A model generated the notes under the pieces. It saw only the letters and a program-made list of their open reading frames with translations, made no database searches and had not been told where the DNA came from. The position numbers were made by a program, and so were the translations under genes. DNA of 10,092 nt from a virus (Duplodnaviria > Heunggongvirae > Uroviricota > Caudoviricetes): IMG/VR virus record IMGVR_UViG_2671180636_000007; one strand, given 5' to 3'. Shown piece after piece: positions 18-10,092 of this stretch (position 1 is the first letter of the stretch; every line of letters starts with the position of its first letter).

Positions 18-2073
18 AAACGGTTGAAATGTATGCCGCTACTTACGGGTCCTGTAATCCTCTGAATAAACCAGAGGGAAAAGATCTCAANNNNNNNNNN
101 NNNNNNNNNNNNNNNNNNNNNNNNNNNNNNNNNNNNNNNNNNNNNNNNNNNNNNNNNNNNNNNNNNNNNNNNNNNNNNNNNNNNNNNNNNNNNNNNNNNN
201 NNNNNNNNNNNNNNNNNNNNNNNNNNNNNNNNNNNNNNNNNNNNNNNNNNNNNNNNNNNNNNNNNNNNNNNNNNNNNNNNNNNNNNNNNNNNNNNNNNNN
301 NNNNNNNNNNNNNNNNNNNNNNNNNNNNNNNNNNNNNNNNNNNNNNNNNNNNNNNNNNNNNNNNNNNNNNNNNNNNNNNNNNNNNNNNNNNNNNNNNNNN
401 NNNNNNNNNNNNNNNNNNNNNNNNNNNNNNNNNNNNNNNNNNNNNNNNNNNNNNNNNNNNNNNNNNNNNNNNNNNNNNNNNNNNNNNNNNNNNNNNNNNN
501 NNNNNNNNNNNNNNNNNNNNNNNNNNNNNNNNNNNNNNNNNNNNNNNCACTGTCTGGTNNNNNNNNNNNNNNNNNNNNNNNNNNNNNNNNNNNNNNNNNN
601 NNNNNNNNNNNNNNNNNNNNNNNNNNNNNNNNNNNNNNNNNNNNNNNNNNNNNNNNNNNNNNNNNNNNNNNNNNNNNNNNNNNNNNNNNNNNNNNNNNNN
701 NNNNNNNNNNNNNNNNNNNNNNNNNNNNNNNNNNNNNNNNNNNNNNNNNNNNNNNNNNNNNNNNNNNNNNNNNNNNNNNNNNNNNNNNNNNNNNNNNNNN
801 NNNNNNNNNNNNNNNNNNNNNNNNNNNNNNNNNNNNNNNNNNNNNNNNNNNNNNNNNNNNNNNNNNNNNNNNNNNNNNNNNNNNNNNNNNNNNNNNNNNN
901 NNNNNNNNNNNNNNNNNNNNNNNNNNNNNNNNNNNNNNNNNNNNNNNNNNNNNNNNNNNNNNNNNNNNNNNNNNNNNNNNNNNNNNNNNNNNNNNNNNNN
1001 NNNNNNNNNNNNNNNNNNNNNNNNNNNNNNNNNNNNNNNNNNNNNNNNNNNNNNNNNNNNNNNNNNNNNNNNNNNNNNNNNNNNNNNNNNNNNNNNNNNN
1101 NNNNNNNNNNNNNNNNNNNNNNNNNNNNNNNNNNNNNNNNNNNNNNNNNNNNNNNNNNNNNNNNNNNNNNNNNNNNNNNNNNNNNNNNNNNNNNNNNNNN
1201 NNNNNGCTTGCTGCTACTTTGNNNNNNNNNNNNNNNNNNNNNNNNNNNNNNNNNNNNNNNNNNNNNNNNNNNNNNNNNNNNNNNNNNNNNNNNNNNNNNN
1301 NNNNNNNNNNNNNNNNNNNNNNNNNNNNNNNNNNNNNNNNNNNNNNNNNNNNNNNNNNNNNNNNNNNNNNNNNNNNNNNNNNNNNNNNNNNNNNNNNNNN
1401 NNNNNNNNNNNNNNNNNNNNNNNNNNNNNNNNNNNNNNNNNNNNNNNNNNNNNNNNNNNNNNNNNNNNNNNNNNNNNNNNNNNNNNNNNNNNNNNNNNNN
1501 NNNNNNNNNNNNNNNNNNNNNNNNNNNNNNNNNNNNNNNNNNNNNNNNNNNNNNNNNNNNNNNNNNNNNNNNNNNNNNNNNNNNNNNNNNNNNNNNNNNN
1601 NNNNNNNNNNNNNNNNNNNNNNNNNNNNNNNNNNNNNNNNNNNNNNNNNNNNNNNNNNNNNNNNNNNNNNNNNNNNNNNNNNNNNNNNNNNNNNNNNNNN
1701 NNNNNNNNNNNNNNNNNNNNNNNNNNNNNNNNNNNNNNNNNNNNNNNNNNNNNNNNNNNNNNNNNNNNNNNNNNNNNNNNNNNNNNNNNNNNNNNNNNNN
1801 NNNNNNNNNNNNNNNNNNNNNNNNNNNNNNNNNNNNNNNNNNNNNNNNNNNNNNNNNNNNNNNNNNNNNNNNNNNNNNNNNNNNNNNNNNNNNNNNNNNN
1901 NNNNNNNNNNNNNNNNNNNNNNNNNNNNNNNNNNNNNNNNNNNNNNNNNNNNNNNNNNNNNNNNNNNNNNNNNNNNNNNNNNNNNNNNNNNNNNNNNNNN
2001 NNNNNNNNNNNNNNNNNNNNNNNNNNNNNNNNNNNNNNNNNNNNNNNNNNNNNNNNNNNNNATAGGGCGGATT

Positions 2074-2359
2074 ATGAATCTTGGAGAATATTTGCATCAT
2101 TTTCATATAACCCAGAGTTCATTTGCTGAGATTGTTGGCGCATCCCAAGGGATGGTCAGCNNNNNNNNNNNNNNNNNNNNNNNNNNNNNNNNNNNNNNNN
2201 NNNNAACTTACAGGAGAAAAAATATTACGTTGGTGTGAAGCAACGGGATGGGTGGTGACCCCACATGAGATTGACAGTAAAACCTACCCCAACCCAACTG
2301 ACGGCTTGCCTGCTGAGTTTCAGGCTAACACACAACCATCGGCGGGGGTTGATTCATGA
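2074..2359 (+). CDS. Cro/YdaS-like HTH DNA-binding regulator, with an apparent reading-frame discontinuity inside the 44-nt masked block 2161-2204
   Basis: ATG at 2074 preceded by AGGGCGG (2064-2070). The N-terminal 29 aa MNLGEYLHHFHITQSSFAEIVGASQGMVS has an XRE/Cro-type helix-turn-helix signature (SQSSFAEIVGxSQGMVS pattern). After the mask the protein-like reading (LTGEKILRWCEATGWVVTPHEID...) is in the next frame and ends with TGA at 2357-2359, overlapping the downstream ATG at 2356 (ATGA coupling). The original frame stops at 2236-2238. The total would be about 95 aa if continuous. Confidence 0.55.
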
Positions 2360-2781
2360 AAATCAAGCATGAACACATCCGCATGGCGATGAAAGCCTGG
2401 GCGCATCCGGACGGTGAAAAAGTTCCGGCAGCTGAAATAACCAGGGTTTATTTCGAACTGGGAATGACGTTTCCGGTTCTGCATAACGACAGCAAGCACA
2501 ACACGCTTTATCTCAACACCCAAAAGATTTTCCGTTGGCTGGATAAAGACACCCCTGACGCTGTTGAAAAAATTCAGGCGTTGTTACCTGCGATCGAAAG
2601 GGCAATGCCACCTCCGCTGGTGGCTCGAATGCGCAGCCACAGTTCAGCTTATTTTCGGGAACTGGTGGAGACGCATGAACGACTGGTGAGAGACGCTGAT
2701 GATTTTGTCGCAGTGGCAATCGCCGGTTTCAATCAGATGAACCGTGGTGGCCCGGCAGGAAATGCTGTGGCAGTACATTGA
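2356..2781 (+). CDS. YdaT-like (CII-like) prophage regulatory protein, 141 aa; family assignment tentative
   Basis: Complete unmasked ORF with ATG 2356 and TGA 2779-2781. GGGGGT lies 6 nt upstream and the start overlaps the upstream stop in ATGA. It sits immediately after a Cro-like gene and before the replication genes, which is the YdaT position in Rac-type prophages. The N-terminus MKIKHEHI and the size match my recollection of the YdaT family, not a search. Confidence 0.7.
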   Translation: MKIKHEHIRMAMKAWAHPDGEKVPAAEITRVYFELGMTFPVLHNDSKHNTLYLNTQKIFRWLDKDTPDAVEKIQALLPAIERAMPPPLVARMRSHSSAYFRELVETHERLVRDADDFVAVAIAGFNQMNRGGPAGNAVAVH

Positions 2782-2852
2782 CTGACAATAGCCATATCGA
2801 ATCGCTCCCGGCAACTCGTGAGTAAAAAGATTCGGTATCAGAAGAGGTGAGT

Positions 2853-3749
2853 ATGGCTAACGCCTGGCTCAGATTATGGCATGACATGCCAAATGACCCT
2901 AAGTGGCGAACAATTGCCAGGGTGTCAGGGCAGCCAATTGCAACAGTGATGGCAGTGTATATCCACCTCCTGGTGAGCGCGTCACGAAATGTCACGCGAG
3001 GTCACATTGATGTCACGACAGAAGATTTGGCAAGTGCGCTCGACGTGACAGAAGAGGTAATTGATTCAATTTTGCAGACGATGCAGGGGCGGGTACTTGA
3101 TGGTGATTTAATCACTGGATGGGAAAAACGCCAGGTGCTTAAAGAGGACAACGGCAATATTTCGCAAACCGCAAAATCTCCTGCAGAGCGCAAGAGGGCG
3201 CAGCGAGAGAGGGAAAGAAAGCGGGAACAAAATGGCGATTGTCANNNNNNNNNNNNNNNNNNNNNNNNNNNNNNNNNNNNNNNNNNNNNNNNNNNNNNNN
3301 NNNNNNNNNNNNNNNNNNNNNNNNNNNNNNNNNNNNNNNNNNNNNNNNNNNNNNNNNNNNNNNNNNNNNNNNNNNNNNNNNNNNNNNNNNNNNNNNNNNN
3401 NNNNNNNNNNNNNNNNNNNNCCGGAAGCCGATTNNNNNNNNNNNNNNNNNNNNNNNNNNNNNNNNNNNNNNNNNNNNNNNNNNNNNNNNNNNNNNNNNNN
3501 NNNNNNNNNNNNNNNNNNNNNNNNNNNNNNNNNNNNNNNNNNNNNNNNNNNNNNNNNNNNNNNNNNNNNNNNNNNNNNNNNNNNNNNNNNNNNNNNNNNN
3601 NNNNNNNNNNNNNNNNNNNNNNNNNNNNNNNNNNNNNNNNNNNNNNNNNNNNNNNNNNNNNNNNNNNNNNNNNNNNNNNNNNNNNNNNNNNNNNNNNNNN
3701 NNNNNNNNNNNCGAGGGGGTGCCACCAGAGACCATGCTGGATGGTGTGA
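2853..3749 (+). CDS. Phage replisome organizer / replication initiator (O-like; replisome-organizer N-terminal domain family)
   Basis: ATG 2853 with AAGAGGT 5 nt upstream. The visible N-terminal 130 aa (MANAWLRLWHDMPNDPKWRTIARV...DLASALDVTEEVIDSILQTMQGRVLDGDLITGWEKRQ) fits the replisome-organizer N-terminal pattern W-x-K/R-L...DPK......E-D-L-A...L-x-V-x-E-E......G-L-I...W-E-K-R-Q. A basic, charged linker follows (ERKRAQRERERKREQ). The 3' end is uncertain: the frame passes through masked blocks 3244-3420 and 3434-3711 and stops at TGA 3747-3749. Confidence 0.7.
   Translation: MANAWLRLWHDMPNDPKWRTIARVSGQPIATVMAVYIHLLVSASRNVTRGHIDVTTEDLASALDVTEEVIDSILQTMQGRVLDGDLITGWEKRQVLKEDNGNISQTAKSPAERKRAQRERERKREQNGDCXXXXXXXXXXXXXXXXXXXXXXXXXXXXXXXXXXXXXXXXXXXXXXXXXXXXXXXXXXXXGSRXXXXXXXXXXXXXXXXXXXXXXXXXXXXXXXXXXXXXXXXXXXXXXXXXXXXXXXXXXXXXXXXXXXXXXXXXXXXXXXXXXXXXXXXXXXXXXRGCHQRPCWMV
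2981..3050. repeat. Iteron-like GTCAC(G) repeats inside the replisome-organizer gene; candidate replication origin
   Basis: Seen: GTCACG at 2981, GTCACG at 2991, GTCAC at 3001 and GTCACG at 3012 (10-11 bp phasing), plus an inverted copy CGTGACA at 3044-3050. GACAGAAGA is duplicated at 3017-3025 and 3046-3054. An AT-rich stretch 'gtaattgattcaattttg' follows at about 3057-3074. The repeats fall in all three codon positions, so they are not explained by amino-acid repetition alone. Confidence 0.45.
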
Positions 3750-4152
3750 GGCGTTACGCGAGATACCTGGCGGCGACCGGGAAAGCNNNNNNNNNNNNNN
3801 NNNNNNNNNNNNNNNNNNNNNNNNNNNNNNNNNNNNNNNNNNNNNNNNNNNNNNNNNNNNNNNNNNNNNNNNNNNNNNNNNNNNNNNNNNNNNNNNNNNN
3901 NNNNNNNNNNNNNNNNNNNNNNNNNNNNNNNNNNNNNNNNNNNNNNNNNNNNNNNNNNNNNNNNNNNNNNNNNNNNNNNNNNNNNNNNNNNNNNNNNNNN
4001 NNNNNNNNNNNNNNNNNNNNNNNNNNNNNNNNNNNNNNNNNNNNNNNNNNNNNNNNNNNNNNNNNNNNNNNNNNNNNNNNNNNNNNNNNNNNNNNNNNNN
4101 NNNNNNNNNNNNNNNNNNNNNNNNNNNNNNNNNNNNNNNNNNNNNNNNNNNN

Positions 4153-4890
4153 NNNNNNNNNNNNNNNNNNNNNNNNNNNNNNNNNNNNNNNNNNNNNNNN
4201 NNNNNNNNNNNNNNNNNNNNNNNNNNNNNNNNNNNNNNNNNNNNNNNNNNNNNNNNNNNNNNNNNNNNNNNNNNNNNNNNNNNNNNNNNNNNNNNNNNNN
4301 NNNNNNNNNNNNNNNNNNNNNNNNNNNNNNNNNNNNNNNNNNNNNNNNNNNNNNNNNNNNNNNNNNNNNNNNNNNNNNNNNNNNNNNNNNNNNNNNNNNN
4401 NNNNNNNNNNNNNNNNNNNNNNNNNNNNNNNNNNNNNNNNNNNNNNNNNNNNNNNNNNNNNNNNNNNNNNNNNNNNNNNNNNNNNNNNNNNNNNNNNNNN
4501 NNNNNNNNNNNNNNNNNNNNNNNNNNNNNNNNNNNNNNNNNNNNNNNNNNNNNNNNNNNNNNNNNNNNNNNNNNNNNNNNNNNNNNNNNNNNNNNNNNNN
4601 NNNNNNNNNNNNNNNNNNNNNNNNNNNNNNNNNNNNNNNNNNNNNNNNNNNNNNNNNNNNNNNNNNNNNNNNNNNCGAAAAACGAGCAGGTGGTATTGCA
4701 CCAGATAATTGATCGCCGGACAGCATCACTGTGCAGTGTCGGGATGTTAACAAACCTGAATCATGCCGCAATGAGCACGCTTCTTGGTGAGAGGATTATG
4801 GACCGCATGACCATGAACGGTTGTCGGTGGGTGACGTTTAACTGGGATAGCTGGCGTTCAAATGTCAGCTTTCCGGGAGTTGTGAAGTAA
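4153..4890 (+). CDS. DnaC-family replicative helicase loader (YdaV/P-like); only the C-terminal 71 codons (4676-4890) are visible and the start coordinate is an estimate
   Basis: The visible C-terminus KNEQVVLHQIIDRRTASLCSVGMLTNLNHAAMSTLLGERIMDRMTMNGCRWVTFNWDSWRSNVS matches, nearly motif for motif, the C-terminus of E. coli DnaC as I recall it (...QIVDRR...GMLTN.N.EEM.KLLGERVMDRM......VIFNWDSYRS.V). Stop TAA at 4888-4890. The start lies in masked block 3787-4675; 4153 is extrapolated from a DnaC-like length of about 245 aa. Confidence 0.6.
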   Translation, partial: XXXXXXXXXXXXXXXXXXXXXXXXXXXXXXXXXXXXXXXXXXXXXXXXXXXXXXXXXXXXXXXXXXXXXXXXXXXXXXXXXXXXXXXXXXXXXXXXXXXXXXXXXXXXXXXXXXXXXXXXXXXXXXXXXXXXXXXXXXXXXXXXXXXXXXXXXXXXXXXXXXXXXXXXXXXXXXXKNEQVVLHQIIDRRTASLCSVGMLTNLNHAAMSTLLGERIMDRMTMNGCRWVTFNWDSWRSNVSFPGVVK

Positions 4891-4911
4891 TTTTTGTTGG
4901 AGGATGTTTTA

Positions 4912-6183
4912 ATGGAAACTGTATTTGACGCACTGAAAGCACTGAAAAGAGCCTCTTCACATGTGGTGGCGTCCCGCCTTGGAATCAGCCGTGAAGATGC
5001 GGTCAACGAACTGTGGAAACTGAAGCGCCGTGGTGAAGCGGATAACAAGGGTTCGATGTGGTGGCTGATTCAGGCTGGTGAAAGTGAACCAGTGTCACCG
5101 GTACCGAAAGTGACAGCGCAAATGCTGACTGAGGCGATTGAACAACATGGCCCACAAACGGCGGATGAGCTGGCACTGATGTTCGGGATTACCTCNNNNN
5201 NNNNNNNNNNNNNNNNNNNNNNNNNNNNNNNNNNNNNNNNNNNNNNNNNNNNNNNNNNNNNNNNNNNNNNNNNNNNNNNNNNNNNNNNNNNNNNNNNNNN
5301 NNNNNNNNNNNNNNNNNNNNNNNNNNNNNNNNNNNNNNNNNAAGCCGCATCCATAGCGGAAACGGATGGTAAAGTNNNNNNNNNNNNNNNNNNNNNNNNN
5401 NNNNNNNNNNNNNNNNNNNNNNNNNNNNNNNNNNNNNNNNNNNNNNNNNNNNNNNNNNNNNNNNNNNNNNNNNNNNNNNNNNNNNNNNNNNNNNNNNNNN
5501 NNNNNNNNNNNNNNNNNNNNNNNNNNNNNNNNNNNNNNNNNNNNNNNNNNNNNNNNNNNNNNNNNNNNNNNNNNNNNNNNNNNNNNNNNNNNNNNNNNNN
5601 NNNNNNNNNNNNNNNNNNNNNNNNNNNNNNNNNNNNNNNNNNNNNNNNNNNNNNNNNNNNNNNNNNNNNNNNNNNNNNNNNNNNNNNNNNNNNNNNNNNN
5701 NNNNNNNNNNNNNNNNNNNNNNNNNNNNNNNNNNNNNNNNNNNNNNNNNNNNNNNNNNNNNNNNNNNNNNNNNNNNNNNNNNNNNNNNNNNNNNNNNNNN
5801 NNNNNNNNNNNNNNNNNNNNNNNNNNNNNNNNNNNNNNNNNNNNNNNNNNNNNNNNNNNNNNNNNNNNNNNNNNNNNNNNNNNNNNNNNNNNNNNNNNNN
5901 NNNNNNNNNNNNNNNNNNNNNNNNNNNNNNNNNNNNNNNNNNNNNNNNNNNNNNNNNNNNNCAGGCTCGTAAGGACTGGCAAAACGCCCGCAAAAAACTC
6001 TCGAGGGCAAAGCTGAAGAAACCATCTGTGGTTGATCCGGACCTTATCTGGTCATTACCGGACGGAGAAATACGCCGCTACGACAGACATCAGAACATAA
6101 TCTGTCGCGAGTGCCGGAAGAGTGAAGTTATGCAGCGTGTACCGGCTTTCTATCAGGGTGATTTTCAGGAGGCGGTACTGTGA
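4912..6183 (+). CDS. Uncharacterised protein with two tandem winged-helix-like segments at the N-terminus; the frame stays open across two masked blocks to TGA 6181-6183, so this may be one gene of about 423 aa or two genes
   Basis: ATG 4912 with a strong GGAGGA RBS (4898-4903) 21 nt after the DnaC-like stop. Visible N-terminus METVFDALKALKRASSHVVASRLGISREDAVNELWKLKRRGE...KVTAQMLTEAIEQHGPQTADELALMFGIT (two HTH-like units). Visible C-terminal part (5962-6183) ...QARKDWQNARKKLSRAKLKKPS...IICRECRKSEVMQRVPAFYQGDFQEAVL. Masked blocks 5196-5341 and 5376-5961 could hide a stop and a restart. Confidence 0.45.
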   Translation: METVFDALKALKRASSHVVASRLGISREDAVNELWKLKRRGEADNKGSMWWLIQAGESEPVSPVPKVTAQMLTEAIEQHGPQTADELALMFGITXXXXXXXXXXXXXXXXXXXXXXXXXXXXXXXXXXXXXXXXXXXXXXXXXXAASIAETDGKXXXXXXXXXXXXXXXXXXXXXXXXXXXXXXXXXXXXXXXXXXXXXXXXXXXXXXXXXXXXXXXXXXXXXXXXXXXXXXXXXXXXXXXXXXXXXXXXXXXXXXXXXXXXXXXXXXXXXXXXXXXXXXXXXXXXXXXXXXXXXXXXXXXXXXXXXXXXXXXXXXXXXXXXXXXXXXXXXXXXXXXXXXXXXXXXXXXXQARKDWQNARKKLSRAKLKKPSVVDPDLIWSLPDGEIRRYDRHQNIICRECRKSEVMQRVPAFYQGDFQEAVL

Positions 6184-6240
6184 GTGAAATTAGCTATCAG
6201 GCTTCAATTACCGCTGGCATTCGCATCAAAGGAGAGGAGC

Positions 6241-6597
6241 ATGGAAATAAAACCAGAAGATGAGTTAAGCAATATTGTTTTATTTCCGGTAAAAGAGGAT
6301 AACCCTCGTAATCAGGTTAATTTTCTTTATGAGCCATCGGAAAGACCATATTGCCATCACGCCTCTGTACGGGTTGACGAAAAAGAGCGTCAGGTCCGCT
6401 GTAAAATCTGCGGTGCGGTTGTGGAGCCGTTTGACTGGATGCTCTCTGTGGCAAAAAGAGAAACCAGACTGGCAGATGATGTAAGGCTCTTGCGCCAGGA
6501 GGAGCGGGAAAGGCGAAAAAATATAGAAAAGCTAATCCAGATTGAGCGTAATGCGAAAGCGCGGATACGCAGGGTGACAAAATATAGCCCCGAATAA
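6241..6597 (+). CDS. Small uncharacterised protein (118 aa) with a putative zinc-ribbon (C-H-H ... C-x2-C) and a charged coiled-coil C-terminal tail
   Basis: Fully unmasked ORF with ATG 6241 and an AAAGGAGAGGAG RBS directly upstream; stop TAA 6595-6597. Sequence MEIKPEDELSNIVLFPVKEDNPRNQVNFLYEPSERPYCHHASVRVDEKERQVRCKICGAVVEPFDWMLSVAKRETRLADDVRLLRQEERERRKNIEKLIQIERNAKARIRRVTKYSPE. I cannot assign a family from memory. Confidence 0.7.
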   Translation: MEIKPEDELSNIVLFPVKEDNPRNQVNFLYEPSERPYCHHASVRVDEKERQVRCKICGAVVEPFDWMLSVAKRETRLADDVRLLRQEERERRKNIEKLIQIERNAKARIRRVTKYSPE

Positions 6598-6729
6598 TCA
6601 AGGTTATTTCTGGAAGTCAAGTCGTGAGTGATGAGGACTAACAAATACGGTGAACTCGATAAAGAGATTCAGGACGAACTGGAGGCCAGGAATGATTGAC
6701 AAATCACCAAGTGAGTTCAGCTACAAAGA

Positions 6730-6745
6730 TTTATTGTCATAACGG
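6730..6745. repeat. Upstream copy of an imperfect direct repeat (TTTATTGTCAT-AACGG) flanking the restriction-modification cassette; the partner is at 10019-10035
   Basis: Seen: 'tttattgtcataacgg' at 6730-6745 versus 'tttattgtcatcaacgg' at 10019-10035. That is 11 identical nt plus 5 after a 1-nt indel, lying about 70 nt before the possible MTase start and about 110 nt after the REase stop. Statistical support is modest (AT-rich 11-mer). Confidence 0.3.
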
Positions 6746-6801
6746 GTTATGAGATCGACTTGGTGCGTGATATTCTTCGGGCCAGTTTGCTATGCGCCAC
6801 C

Positions 6802-8547
6802 ATGAGNNNNNNNNNNNNNNNNNNNNNNNNNNNNNNNNNNNNNNNNNNNNNNNNNNNNNNNNNNNNNNNNNNNNNNNNNNNNNNNNNNNNNNNNNNNNNN
6901 NNNNNNNNNNNNNNNNNNNNNNNNNNNNNNNNNNNNNNNNNNNNNNNNNNNNNNNNNNNNNNNNNNNNNNNNNNNNNNNNNNNNNNNNNNNNNNNNNNNN
7001 NNNNNNNNNNNNNNNNNNNNNNNNNNNNNNNNNNNNNNNNNNNNNNNNNNNNNNNNNNNNNNNNNNNNNNNNNNNNNNNNNNNNNNNNNNNNNNNNNNNN
7101 NNNNNNNNNNNNNNNNNNNNNNNNNNNNNNNNNNNNNNNNNNNNNNNNNNNNNNNNNNNNNNNNNNNNNNNNNNNNNNNNNNNNNNNNNNNNNNNNNNNN
7201 NNNNNNNNNNNNNNNNNNNNNNNNTATCTGATTGGGTCAATTTATACGGTAATGCTGCCATCCGCTTACCGTTCGGAATTGGGGGCTTACTATACCCCCC
7301 CACCTTTGGTAGCGCGTCTCTTGGACCTGGCTGAAAAGTCTGGTGTTGATTTTTCTCATGCATCGGTTATTGATCCTGCGTGTGGTGGCGGTGCATTTTT
7401 GGCACCAGTAGCCATTCGAATGTTAAAAAAAGACAAGGGGTCTTCCCCTGAATGGATGTTGAGGAGAATCAGTCGTCGTTTAAAGGGGATAGAGATCGAT
7501 CCATTTGCGGCTTGGATGAGTTTGGTATTGCTCGAATCTGTACTAATGCCACTATGTGTAAAGGTAAAACGTAGATTGCCTGAAGATACAATTATTGTTG
7601 CTGATGCGCTTCAGCAAGATAAATTTTCTGGTTATGATCTTGTGGTAGGGAATCCGCCTTACGGACGTGTCACTCTCGATATTAAAACGAGAGAAAAATA
7701 TTCTCGTTCGTTATTTGGTCATGCAAATCTATATGGATTGTTCACCGACTTAGCTGTTCGCATGGTTAAAGAGAAAACAGGAGTTATTGCATTTCTTACG
7801 CCAACTTCTTTTCTTGGTGGGCAGTATTTCACCGCGCTGCGAACCCTTTTGACCGAAAAAACTACTCCGTATGCCCTTGATTTCGTCACTGACAGGGATG
7901 GGGTCTTTGACGATGTTCTCCAGGAAACAATGTTGACAGCATTCAAGGCGGGAGAACATAAAGTTCGGGCCCAGGTATCCTCACTTGTCCCTAAGGGGTT
8001 GAACAAAGCAAAAATTGAGAAAATAGGTAATGTTGATATAGAAAAAGGTGGAGCAACGTGGCTTTTGCCACGCGTTAAAGATGATGCCTGTTTTCTTAAT
8101 GTATTAAAACAGATGTCTACGCGTTTAGCTGATCTGGGATACTCAGTCTCTACAGGTCAGTTAGTCTGGAATCGATTTAAGTCGCAGTTGCGTACGACGA
8201 AAGGAAAAAATAGCTACCCATTAGTCTGGGCGGAATCAATAACTTCAGCTGGTTTTCGTTTTAGTGCAGACAGAAAAAATCATGTTCCCTATATCGATAT
8301 AACCCCACAACAGGGTTTCCTTGTGACAAAATCTGAATGTGTGCTTGTTCAGCGGACAACATCGAAGGAACAGGACAGAAGGATTTTAGCGGCAATTTTA
8401 CCTCAGGGATTTATAGATGAAACTGGTGGCGTAGTAGTTGAAAACCATATTAATATTGTATATTCAAACGGATTGTTCTCTGCGGTTCGCCCTGATGTTA
8501 TTGATATGCTACTTAATTCGCATGTTGTCGATCGGGCGTTCAGGTGT
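6802..8547 (+). CDS. Gamma-class N6-adenine DNA methyltransferase (Eco57I/PstI-methylase-like) of a restriction-modification system; both ends lie in masked sequence
   Basis: The visible 441 codons (7225-8547) contain GAYYTPPPLVARLLDL, motif I DPACGGGAFLAP (FxGxG-type SAM pocket) and motif IV NPPYGR (N6-adenine catalytic motif) in the gamma-class order. A possible in-frame ATG at 6802 (no clear SD) precedes masked block 6807-7224, so the true start could be there or inside the mask. The 3' end is in masked block 8548-9254. Confidence 0.85.
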
Positions 8548-9254
8548 NNNNNNNNNNNNNNNNNNNNNNNNNNNNNNNNNNNNNNNNNNNNNNNNNNNNN
8601 NNNNNNNNNNNNNNNNNNNNNNNNNNNNNNNNNNNNNNNNNNNNNNNNNNNNNNNNNNNNNNNNNNNNNNNNNNNNNNNNNNNNNNNNNNNNNNNNNNNN
8701 NNNNNNNNNNNNNNNNNNNNNNNNNNNNNNNNNNNNNNNNNNNNNNNNNNNNNNNNNNNNNNNNNNNNNNNNNNNNNNNNNNNNNNNNNNNNNNNNNNNN
8801 NNNNNNNNNNNNNNNNNNNNNNNNNNNNNNNNNNNNNNNNNNNNNNNNNNNNNNNNNNNNNNNNNNNNNNNNNNNNNNNNNNNNNNNNNNNNNNNNNNNN
8901 NNNNNNNNNNNNNNNNNNNNNNNNNNNNNNNNNNNNNNNNNNNNNNNNNNNNNNNNNNNNNNNNNNNNNNNNNNNNNNNNNNNNNNNNNNNNNNNNNNNN
9001 NNNNNNNNNNNNNNNNNNNNNNNNNNNNNNNNNNNNNNNNNNNNNNNNNNNNNNNNNNNNNNNNNNNNNNNNNNNNNNNNNNNNNNNNNNNNNNNNNNNN
9101 NNNNNNNNNNNNNNNNNNNNNNNNNNNNNNNNNNNNNNNNNNNNNNNNNNNNNNNNNNNNNNNNNNNNNNNNNNNNNNNNNNNNNNNNNNNNNNNNNNNN
9201 NNNNNNNNNNNNNNNNNNNNNNNNNNNNNNNNNNNNNNNNNNNNNNNNNNNNNN

Positions 9255-9909
9255 CTTTGATGCCGGGCTTGAAGGAGATTCGCTGCTGAGTGCAATAAGT
9301 TCCTGGCAAGAAAATCATTTGAACAAAGCCGCTCTTGCTAGGTTGCGTTTATTGAAATCAGGGGCAGTGATTGCTGCTGATGCCGTAGTCGTCACTTTCC
9401 CAAATGGAGAGAAGAGAACTTTAGCTCCGGGCCCGTCAAGTACAATAGCTAAGGCCGTCATCGAAGTTTTTGCTCCTAATTTTCTTAAGAATCCAACTGT
9501 GCTCTGGTTGTCTGAATCCGGGAATAAAGTTGTTGCTCAGGATGATGTATTGGCAAAAGCATTGGGGCTGAATATTGATGCCTCAAAAGCACTTCCAGAT
9601 ATTATTTTGATTGATTTGGGAGAGGACCGAACGGGTTCGGACATGCTTGTAGTTTTCACTGAAGTAGTTGCGACAGATGGGCCTATAAACAGGGAACGAA
9701 AAGTTACTCTCACTCATTTGGCTATTGACGCTGGGTTCAGCGAGAAAAATCTTGCATTCCTTACGGCATTTATGGACAGAAGTGCTCTGCCTTTTAAAAA
9801 GGCAATACCAGAATTGGCGTGGGGATCTTATGCATGGTTTGCTTCTGAACCGGAGCACTTAATTGATCTTCGGGATGGTTATCCGGTAAAGATCAGCCAG
9901 AGAAAATGA
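9255..9909 (+). CDS. Putative Type II restriction endonuclease, C-terminal 218 codons visible (BsuBI/PstI-like assignment tentative); the 5' end is masked and the protein could alternatively be the C-terminal part of an M-R fusion
   Basis: Protein-like frame immediately downstream of, and in the same frame as, the methyltransferase: ...LPDIILIDLGEDRTGSDMLVVFTEVVATDGPINRERKVTLTHLAIDAGFSEKNLAFLTAFMD...; stop TGA 9907-9909. The PD...D...E-V-V segment is reminiscent of a PD-(D/E)xK-type core, and the overall feel resembles BsuBI/PstI-family REase C-terminal domains (from memory, not a search). Position next to a gamma-class MTase supports an R role. Confidence 0.55.
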
Positions 9910-10018
9910 CCAAAGTTTGATATCCGCCACGCCCTGAAGGATGGGGGTTTTACGGTGCACTGGATAAAAAATCGGTTTCATAGATTTGCCCACCGTGGTA
10001 TACGCCTGCGATAAAAAC

Positions 10019-10035
10019 TTTATTGTCATCAACGG
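10019..10035. repeat. Downstream copy of the imperfect direct repeat flanking the restriction-modification cassette
   Basis: See the partner at 6730-6745. Confidence 0.3.
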
Positions 10036-10061
10036 CAAAAGCAATAATTGTTCTGTGGCGG

Positions 10062-10092
10062 GGTGATGCTGCCAACTTACTGATTTAGTGTA
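10062..10092 (+). mobile_element. IS1 left terminus (first 31 nt including the left inverted repeat); the rest of this copy lies beyond the window
   Basis: Seen: 'ggtgatgctgccaacttactgatttagtgta' at 10062-10092. From memory this is identical to the first 31 nt of IS1 (GGTGATGCTGCCAACTTACTGATTTAGTGTATGATGG...), in the same orientation as the IS1 end at 1-17. Confidence 0.85.

Follow-up and report, generated by a model that had tools for sequence, protein, structure and literature searches.

Type II restriction-modification (R-M) systems with an endonuclease of the BsuBI/PstI family have a precedent on prophages of Escherichia coli. EcoGIII, a PstI/BsuBI isoschizomer which pairs a gamma-type N6-adenine DNA methyltransferase (MTase) with such an endonuclease, is carried by Stx2a prophages of E. 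coli O104:H4, O145:H28, O103 and O157:H7 PST2 and methylates CTGCAG (PMC3893438, PMC4587872), and its endonuclease R.EcoGIII is reported to be biochemically active (PMC3893438). Here we describe a cassette with the same two kinds of enzyme in IMGVR_UViG_2671180636_000007, a stretch of 10,092 nucleotides from a virus of the Caudoviricetes, the whole of which is called the window below. An MTase gene (M) is followed by an endonuclease gene (R), and from sequence comparison the pair is very probably a classical two-gene Type II R-M operon of the PstI/BsuBI family that a Rac-like lambdoid E. coli prophage has as accessory cargo.

The cassette is like EcoGIII (compared in phage phiON-2011) in being prophage-borne in E. 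coli, in the order of M and then R and in the same 4-nt ATGA overlap between the two genes, and the proteins of the two systems are homologous (E=3e-22 for R; E=7e-27 for M, from motif IV to the C-terminus). However, R and M each have only 26% protein identity to their EcoGIII counterparts, which are shorter (489 aa for M and 317 aa for R, against about 598 and 360 in the window), and EcoGIII adjoins cI in the immunity region, while the window cassette lies at the replication/nin junction. R also shares with SdaI (CCTGCAGG, PDB 2IXS) a winged helix-turn-helix (HTH) N-domain and a PD-(D/E)XK C-domain, and residues 96-349 of R align with residues 76-313 of SdaI with D233 and E248 conserved, but the similarity is low and the site of SdaI has 8 bp. 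M resembles M.TaqI and other gamma-class enzymes (N6_Mtase, Eco57I) in the order of motif I (FxGxG-like), motif IV (NPPY) and a C-terminal target-recognition region. This similarity is confined to the catalytic core, whereas the N-terminal part of about 120 aa and the C-terminal half of M are specific to the PstI-like clade. Besides, proteins described by the PADLOC profile PDLC03359 contain the same two kinds of domain, but in one polypeptide instead of two genes in different frames. Taken together, the window cassette represents a divergent clade of the known BsuBI/PstI family, as judged from these alignments.

The junction between M and R

The window is heavily masked with runs of N, and since the start and stop of M and the start of R are all inside such runs, their coordinates are nominal (Table 1): those of M are anchored on the nearest visible base at the left, and the start of R is anchored on the visible base at the right. 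The masked parts were read from seven unmasked copies, which are L001 (E. coli FDAARGOS_943) and L002 (E. coli VL7S7), two complete chromosomes retrieved by megablast, and L003-L007, five IMG/VR contigs with the cassette that were retrieved with a 27-mer from 8521-8547. L007 is 100% identical to the visible segments 3712-3786, 4676-5195, 5342-5375, 7225-8547 and 9255-10092 and has four mismatches to the visible 5962-6806, and L006 is 100% identical to all visible segments in 2062-5375, to bases 1-85 of segment 1-90 and to 9255-10092. In other words, the visible part of R is matched perfectly by both contigs and the visible part of M by L007, and the window prophage reads as a recombinant sibling of the two.

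It turned out that M ends with ...ATT GCA TGA in all of the seven unmasked copies, that its TGA overlaps the ATG of R (ATGA), and that R is in the -1 frame. In the unmasked window, the junction would be expected to read GATTGCATGAATCTG, in which TGA closes M and ATG opens R. The first-pass annotation of the window, made from its letters alone, had left two genes with a stop and restart between M and R as an alternative to a fusion, and this alternative is what every unmasked relative has.

The same annotation had stated that the MTase and nuclease regions share one reading frame. The arithmetic is right, as 7225 and 9256 are both 1 modulo 3, but it is not a property of the DNA. In every run that could be compared with L006 and L007, the number of Ns differs from the real spacing between the identical segments: the run 91-547 falls short of the real sequence by 248 nt, while the runs 559-1205, 1222-2061, 3787-4675, 5196-5341, 5376-5961, 6807-7224 and 8548-9254 are too long by 106, 141, 194, 30, 78, 62 and 124 nt, respectively, and the last two excesses (62 and 124 nt) are found against L001-L005 as well. 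R appears in the frame of M because the 124 surplus Ns (3x41+1) alone shift it, and the 1049-aa open reading frame (ORF) at 6760-9909 is a read-through of Ns. Inferences on frame, length and ORFs across masks are consequently unreliable throughout the window. A further long ORF (4894-6183, 429 aa) is also a masking artefact, as the corresponding sequence of L007 (1076-2257) has an in-frame TAA after 247 codons and contains a DUF977-type gene and then a second gene, with no single 429-aa protein.

To see the arrangement in the wider clade, 80 R loci from species-representative genomes (Burkholderiales, Pseudomonadales, Sphingomonadales, Rhizobiales and others) were inspected, and an M homologue lies directly upstream of R on the same strand in 78 of them. 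With L001-L007 and EcoGIII added, there are 86 loci with M upstream of R. A 4-nt RTGA overlap is found in 66 of them, and R is in the -1 frame in 80; the few exceptions show a short gap, a short overlap or an insertion. A controller gene was not found, since the conserved cassette has no additional ORF before M or between the two genes, and the start of R is within the stop of M. The cassette falls outside the C-protein-controlled R-M class, which has a small HTH controller gene and a C-box, and its predicted separate R and M proteins are those of a classical two-component Type II R-M system.

The two enzymes

M is annotated in RefSeq as a protein of 610 aa with the name “HsdM family class I SAM-dependent methyltransferase” and with its ATG nominally at 6812. 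Its visible part, 7225-8547, is translated without stops and corresponds to residues 118-558 in the 610-aa numbering. It contains DPACGGGAF (residues 167-175) and, 85 residues further on, NPPYGR (residues 260-265), and about 345 aa follow. This order, motif I before motif IV and then a C-terminal target-recognition region, corresponds to the gamma arrangement, in agreement with the gamma-class N6-adenine MTase that the first-pass annotation had read from these two motifs in the open frame. Both parts of the cassette were searched against Pfam, as that annotation had proposed, and M matches PF07669 Eco57I (1.7e-13) and PF02384 N6_Mtase (2.1e-09). Besides, the PDB sequence of M.TaqI is matched at 3e-08, and the PADLOC MTase_II profile PDLC03338 spans M end to end with 996 bits.

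An ATG at 6802 had been taken as the start of M, which is not tenable, as it precedes the annotated ATG by 10 nt and is in another frame. A second ATG is found 36 nt downstream of the annotated one. Six enterobacterial copies were compared, and indels of 1-2 nt between both ATGs break the frame of the first one in Kluyvera, L132 and Enterobacter. The second ATG, which has AGGA before it, is consequently the likely true start, giving 598 aa rather than the annotated 610. M is called from this second ATG as 598 aa on the Logan contigs L130, L132 and L133 and in Kluyvera, Enterobacter and Serratia, while the calls for the Citrobacter contigs are 598 aa on L094 and 610 aa on L093 and L095.

R has the RefSeq name “BsuBI/PstI family type II restriction endonuclease”, and its visible part (9255-9909) corresponds to residues 144-360, the stretch 9256-9909 being open up to its TGA. 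In the unmasked R of L007, the N-terminal HTH (winged-helix) DNA-binding domain PF17728 covers residues 10-172 (106.6 bits against a cut-off of 27; 1.2e-30) and the BsuBI/PstI catalytic domain PF06616 covers residues 188-349 (152.2 bits against a cut-off of 27; 9.3e-45). The sequence of the SdaI crystal structure, 2IXS, is matched at 1.8e-16, and the PADLOC REase_II profile PDLC03589 spans R end to end with 426 bits. The resemblance of 9256-9909 to an endonuclease C-terminal domain, noticed in the first-pass annotation, is borne out by these matches. In the alignment with SdaI, P257-D258 and E279-V-V-A of R correspond to D233 and E248-A-V-K251, and PD258 and E279 are invariant in 15 subfamily members.

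Table 1. Positions of the cassette, its genes and motifs, and adjoining features in the window.
Feature	Position	Strand	Remarks
M gene, gamma-type N6-adenine DNA methyltransferase	6848..8706	+	598 aa from the conserved second ATG; start and stop nominal
MTase motif I (AdoMet binding), DPACGGGAF	7372..7398	+	Read from the sequence; aligns with M.TaqI motif I
MTase motif IV (catalytic), NPPYGR	7651..7668	+	Read from the translation; aligns with M.TaqI NPPYG
R gene, BsuBI/PstI-family Type II restriction endonuclease	8827..9909	+	360 aa; start nominal; stop TGA 9907-9909
Nuclease active-site region	9595..9672	+	P257-D258 (9595-9600) and E279-V-V-A (9661-9672); from the SdaI alignment
Conserved leader, about 105 nt, directly upstream of the M start	6743..6847	+	Visible to 6806, then masked; equals L007 2817-2921
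Variable cargo segment	6602..9963	+	210 bp of non-coding sequence before M, then M, R and a further 54 bp; from the L001/L089 homology break
parE (RelE/ParE toxin), 3' end, cut by the window end	9950..10092	-	L001/L002 annotation; backbone, not cassette

Prophage setting and spread of the cassette

The window corresponds to the early-right part of a Rac-like lambdoid E. coli prophage. The genes are arranged in the order cro-like, ydaT, replisome organiser, ATPase, DUF977/DUF1627, a small hypothetical gene, M and R, and beyond R there are the convergent parE/parD and then DUF968, rusA and Q. A cassette-less prophage, L089, has the same flanks and three small genes in the slot. Homology between L001 and L089 ends at L001 8439 (window 6601) and resumes at L001 11616 (window 9964), so that the variable segment in L001 is 8440-11615. 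The GC content of the cassette is 43.6% against 49.3% for the rest of L001, and that at third codon positions (GC3) is 36-37% against 53-55%. The sample counts on which the first-pass annotation had based a difference in composition are exact (20/60 at 7981-8040 and 25/60 at 9541-9600, against 30/60 at 2401-2460 and 33/60 at 4801-4860), but “AT-rich” is an overstatement at 43.6% GC.

The cassette is present in 2 of 5,426 complete E. coli genomes. A close relative of it was not found in deposited phage genomes, the 27-mer from 8521-8547 had no match in the metagenome collection, and a window-specific 53-mer (6412-6464) retrieved 33 viral contigs, none of which has the cassette. Copies exist in other genera: those in lambdoid prophages of Kluyvera and Citrobacter (86-89% protein identity) and those in lambdoid prophages of Enterobacter and in a Logan assembly (73-81%) occupy the same replication/nin slot, while a copy with 75% identity is located in a P2-like prophage of Serratia marcescens (AP028506.1, L129 4208-7083), between gpA and the portal/terminase genes. 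Because the Serratia copy sits in a P2-like prophage, the cassette appears to move between unrelated temperate phage types. The lower GC than that of the neighbours, the slot that is filled otherwise in L089, the occurrence in 2 of 5,426 genomes and the copies in other genera agree with the earlier suggestion of horizontally acquired cargo, and the lateral acquisition of the cassette is a well supported prediction.

A leader of about 105 nt lies directly upstream of M (Table 1). Between E. coli, Kluyvera and Citrobacter its identity is 90-92%, in contrast to 78-82% for the coding sequence, where synonymous divergence (dS) exceeds 1, and upstream of 6743 the genera have unrelated sequences (27-55% identity). 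Because it travels with the cassette and is better conserved than the coding sequence, the leader is probably the cassette's own control region, and TGATATTCT within it may be an extended -10 element. RNAalifold does not support an RNA structure there, as the covariation term was positive (penalising) and only one pair was compensated. The leader also holds two short mini-ORFs initiated by ATGAGAT. A perfect 7+2+7 palindrome, TCATAAC-GG-GTTATGA, is found at 6737-6752, exactly where the homology to the Kluyvera cassette begins, and its left arm is not conserved in Citrobacter.

Several observations concern the edges of the cassette and the prophage around it. TTATTGTCATAACGG at 6731-6745 (the left cassette edge) resembles TTATTGTCATCAACGG at 10020-10035 inside parE, about 110 nt past the R stop. 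Since a prophage lacking the cassette has the parE copy too, this likeness is no target duplication, and it could be a recombination microhomology or chance. A flanking direct repeat, TTATTGTCAT(C)AACGG, was considered as an insertion scar and rejected, as the right-hand copy is also present in a cassette-less prophage and there is consequently no target-site duplication. The parE/parD toxin-antitoxin pair adjoins R, which places two addiction-type modules side by side in the prophage; as part of the backbone, the pair also occurs in L089, where the R-M cassette is absent. Besides, in L001, the complete-genome copy closest to the window prophage, the cro-like, replication ATPase and Q genes are frameshifted (5036-5279, 6837-7584 and 14013-14701), while M and R are intact, so the L001 prophage looks defective yet keeps the cassette.

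Predicted function, rival readings and specificity

Among the E. coli, Kluyvera and Citrobacter copies, the ratio of nonsynonymous to synonymous divergence (dN/dS) is 0.049-0.063 for R and 0.056-0.069 for M, at dS of 1.0-1.7, which indicates that both genes are kept by strong purifying selection. From the established knowledge of Type II systems, the cassette would be expected to work as follows. Ribosomes ending M would re-initiate on R (translational coupling), so that there would be no R without M, and less of R than of M, which would give methylation a head start on entry to a new host. The target of M is presumably an adenine in a short site, probably a palindrome, and R presumably cuts the unmethylated copies of this site. 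The lysogen would thereby be protected from unmodified incoming phage or plasmid DNA, as a superinfection barrier, and loss of the prophage would be penalised (prophage addiction).

Four points weigh against a functional two-gene operon. The junction and both gene starts are masked in the window, and the reading as two genes rests on near-identical relatives; activity, the methylated motif and expression of the cassette in the lysogen are predictions for this clade; K251 of SdaI is replaced by an alanine in R; and the scan of the cassette for promoters and terminators gave nothing upstream of M, with no sigma-70 site passing and promoter counts not above those of shuffled sequences. The masked junction bears on the proposal of the first-pass annotation that M and R may be fused into one polypeptide of about 1,000 aa, that is, a Type IIC-like enzyme of about 960-1,000 aa. 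Both visible coding stretches are indeed in one frame in window coordinates, and M matches model positions 28-257 and R positions 595-831 of the 840-aa 'MTase_II' profile PDLC03359. Because M matches its N-terminal part and R its C-terminal part, naturally fused M-R proteins with a BsuBI/PstI-like nuclease domain seem to exist elsewhere in the wider family, but not here: the sole source of the shared frame is the run 8548-9254 with its 124 excess nt, the TGA of M overlaps the ATG of R in each of the seven unmasked copies, an in-frame fusion does not occur among the 86 related loci, and the 120 best R homologues in a database of 5.8 billion proteins are all 344-382 aa long. A fusion is rejected on these grounds, and its probability is close to nil.

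The alanine in R and the empty scan would rather point to a decayed or half-active cassette, with M as a de facto orphan (epigenetic) MTase and R inactive or silent in the lysogen, and the frameshifted neighbour genes in L001 likewise suggest a decaying prophage. However, R.EcoGIII has E-S-V-T at the E-x-x-K position, with threonine in place of lysine. Because this enzyme, which is reported as active (PMC3893438), likewise lacks the lysine, the residue is no family requirement, and inactivity of R through the missing SdaI lysine is rejected in view of this precedent and of the purifying selection on R. The dN/dS of R (about 0.05-0.06) is the same as that of M, all copies have an intact R, there is no variation at PD258 and E279 and the ATGA coupling is preserved, all of which makes decay very unlikely. 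The cassette could also be mainly a phage-side device that is expressed from the early rightward operon in lytic growth and does not serve lysogen defence; progeny DNA would be methylated against isospecific host systems, and competing or host DNA would be cut. Its place immediately downstream of the replication genes in the same orientation, the lack of a detected terminator upstream and of a detected strong promoter of its own, and the same position in several lambdoid prophages are in favour of this role, while the leader travels with the cassette also into unrelated contexts, suggesting its own control region, and the Serratia copy in a P2-like prophage has a different transcriptional setting. 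We consider such a role unlikely on balance but a serious candidate, and it and lysogen defence are not mutually exclusive.

For the two-gene Type II operon, the question of specificity follows. CTGCAG has the precedent of the family and is a candidate only, as the identity to CTGCAG enzymes is about 26%. In 6-bp palindrome counts over 478 kb of flanks of the related R-M loci L009-L088, made without a control set, CTGCAG does not stand out, with an observed/expected ratio of 0.75. The most under-represented palindromes in the same 478 kb, again without a control set, are CTCGAG (0.44, z=-8.6) and GGATCC (0.43). Tentatively, the clade may recognise a sequence other than CTGCAG, considering the identity of about 26%, the longer N-terminal domain of R and the longer M, and the leader could be a controller-independent regulatory element; this is possible, though we would lean against it.

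In conclusion, much of the system is of a known kind: it is a standard Type II operon with a family-level annotation in RefSeq, end-to-end matches to defence profiles and a prophage precedent in EcoGIII. What may be new here is the specificity of this clade. As the cassette appears to move among temperate phages of several genera, an extra N6-methyladenine (m6A) motif and a barrier to transformation or phage infection would be expected in the strains that have it. If the clade does recognise a different sequence, a new specificity of the family would be spread by lambdoid and P2-like prophages across the Enterobacterales, and would impose an extra m6A methylome on the lysogens.

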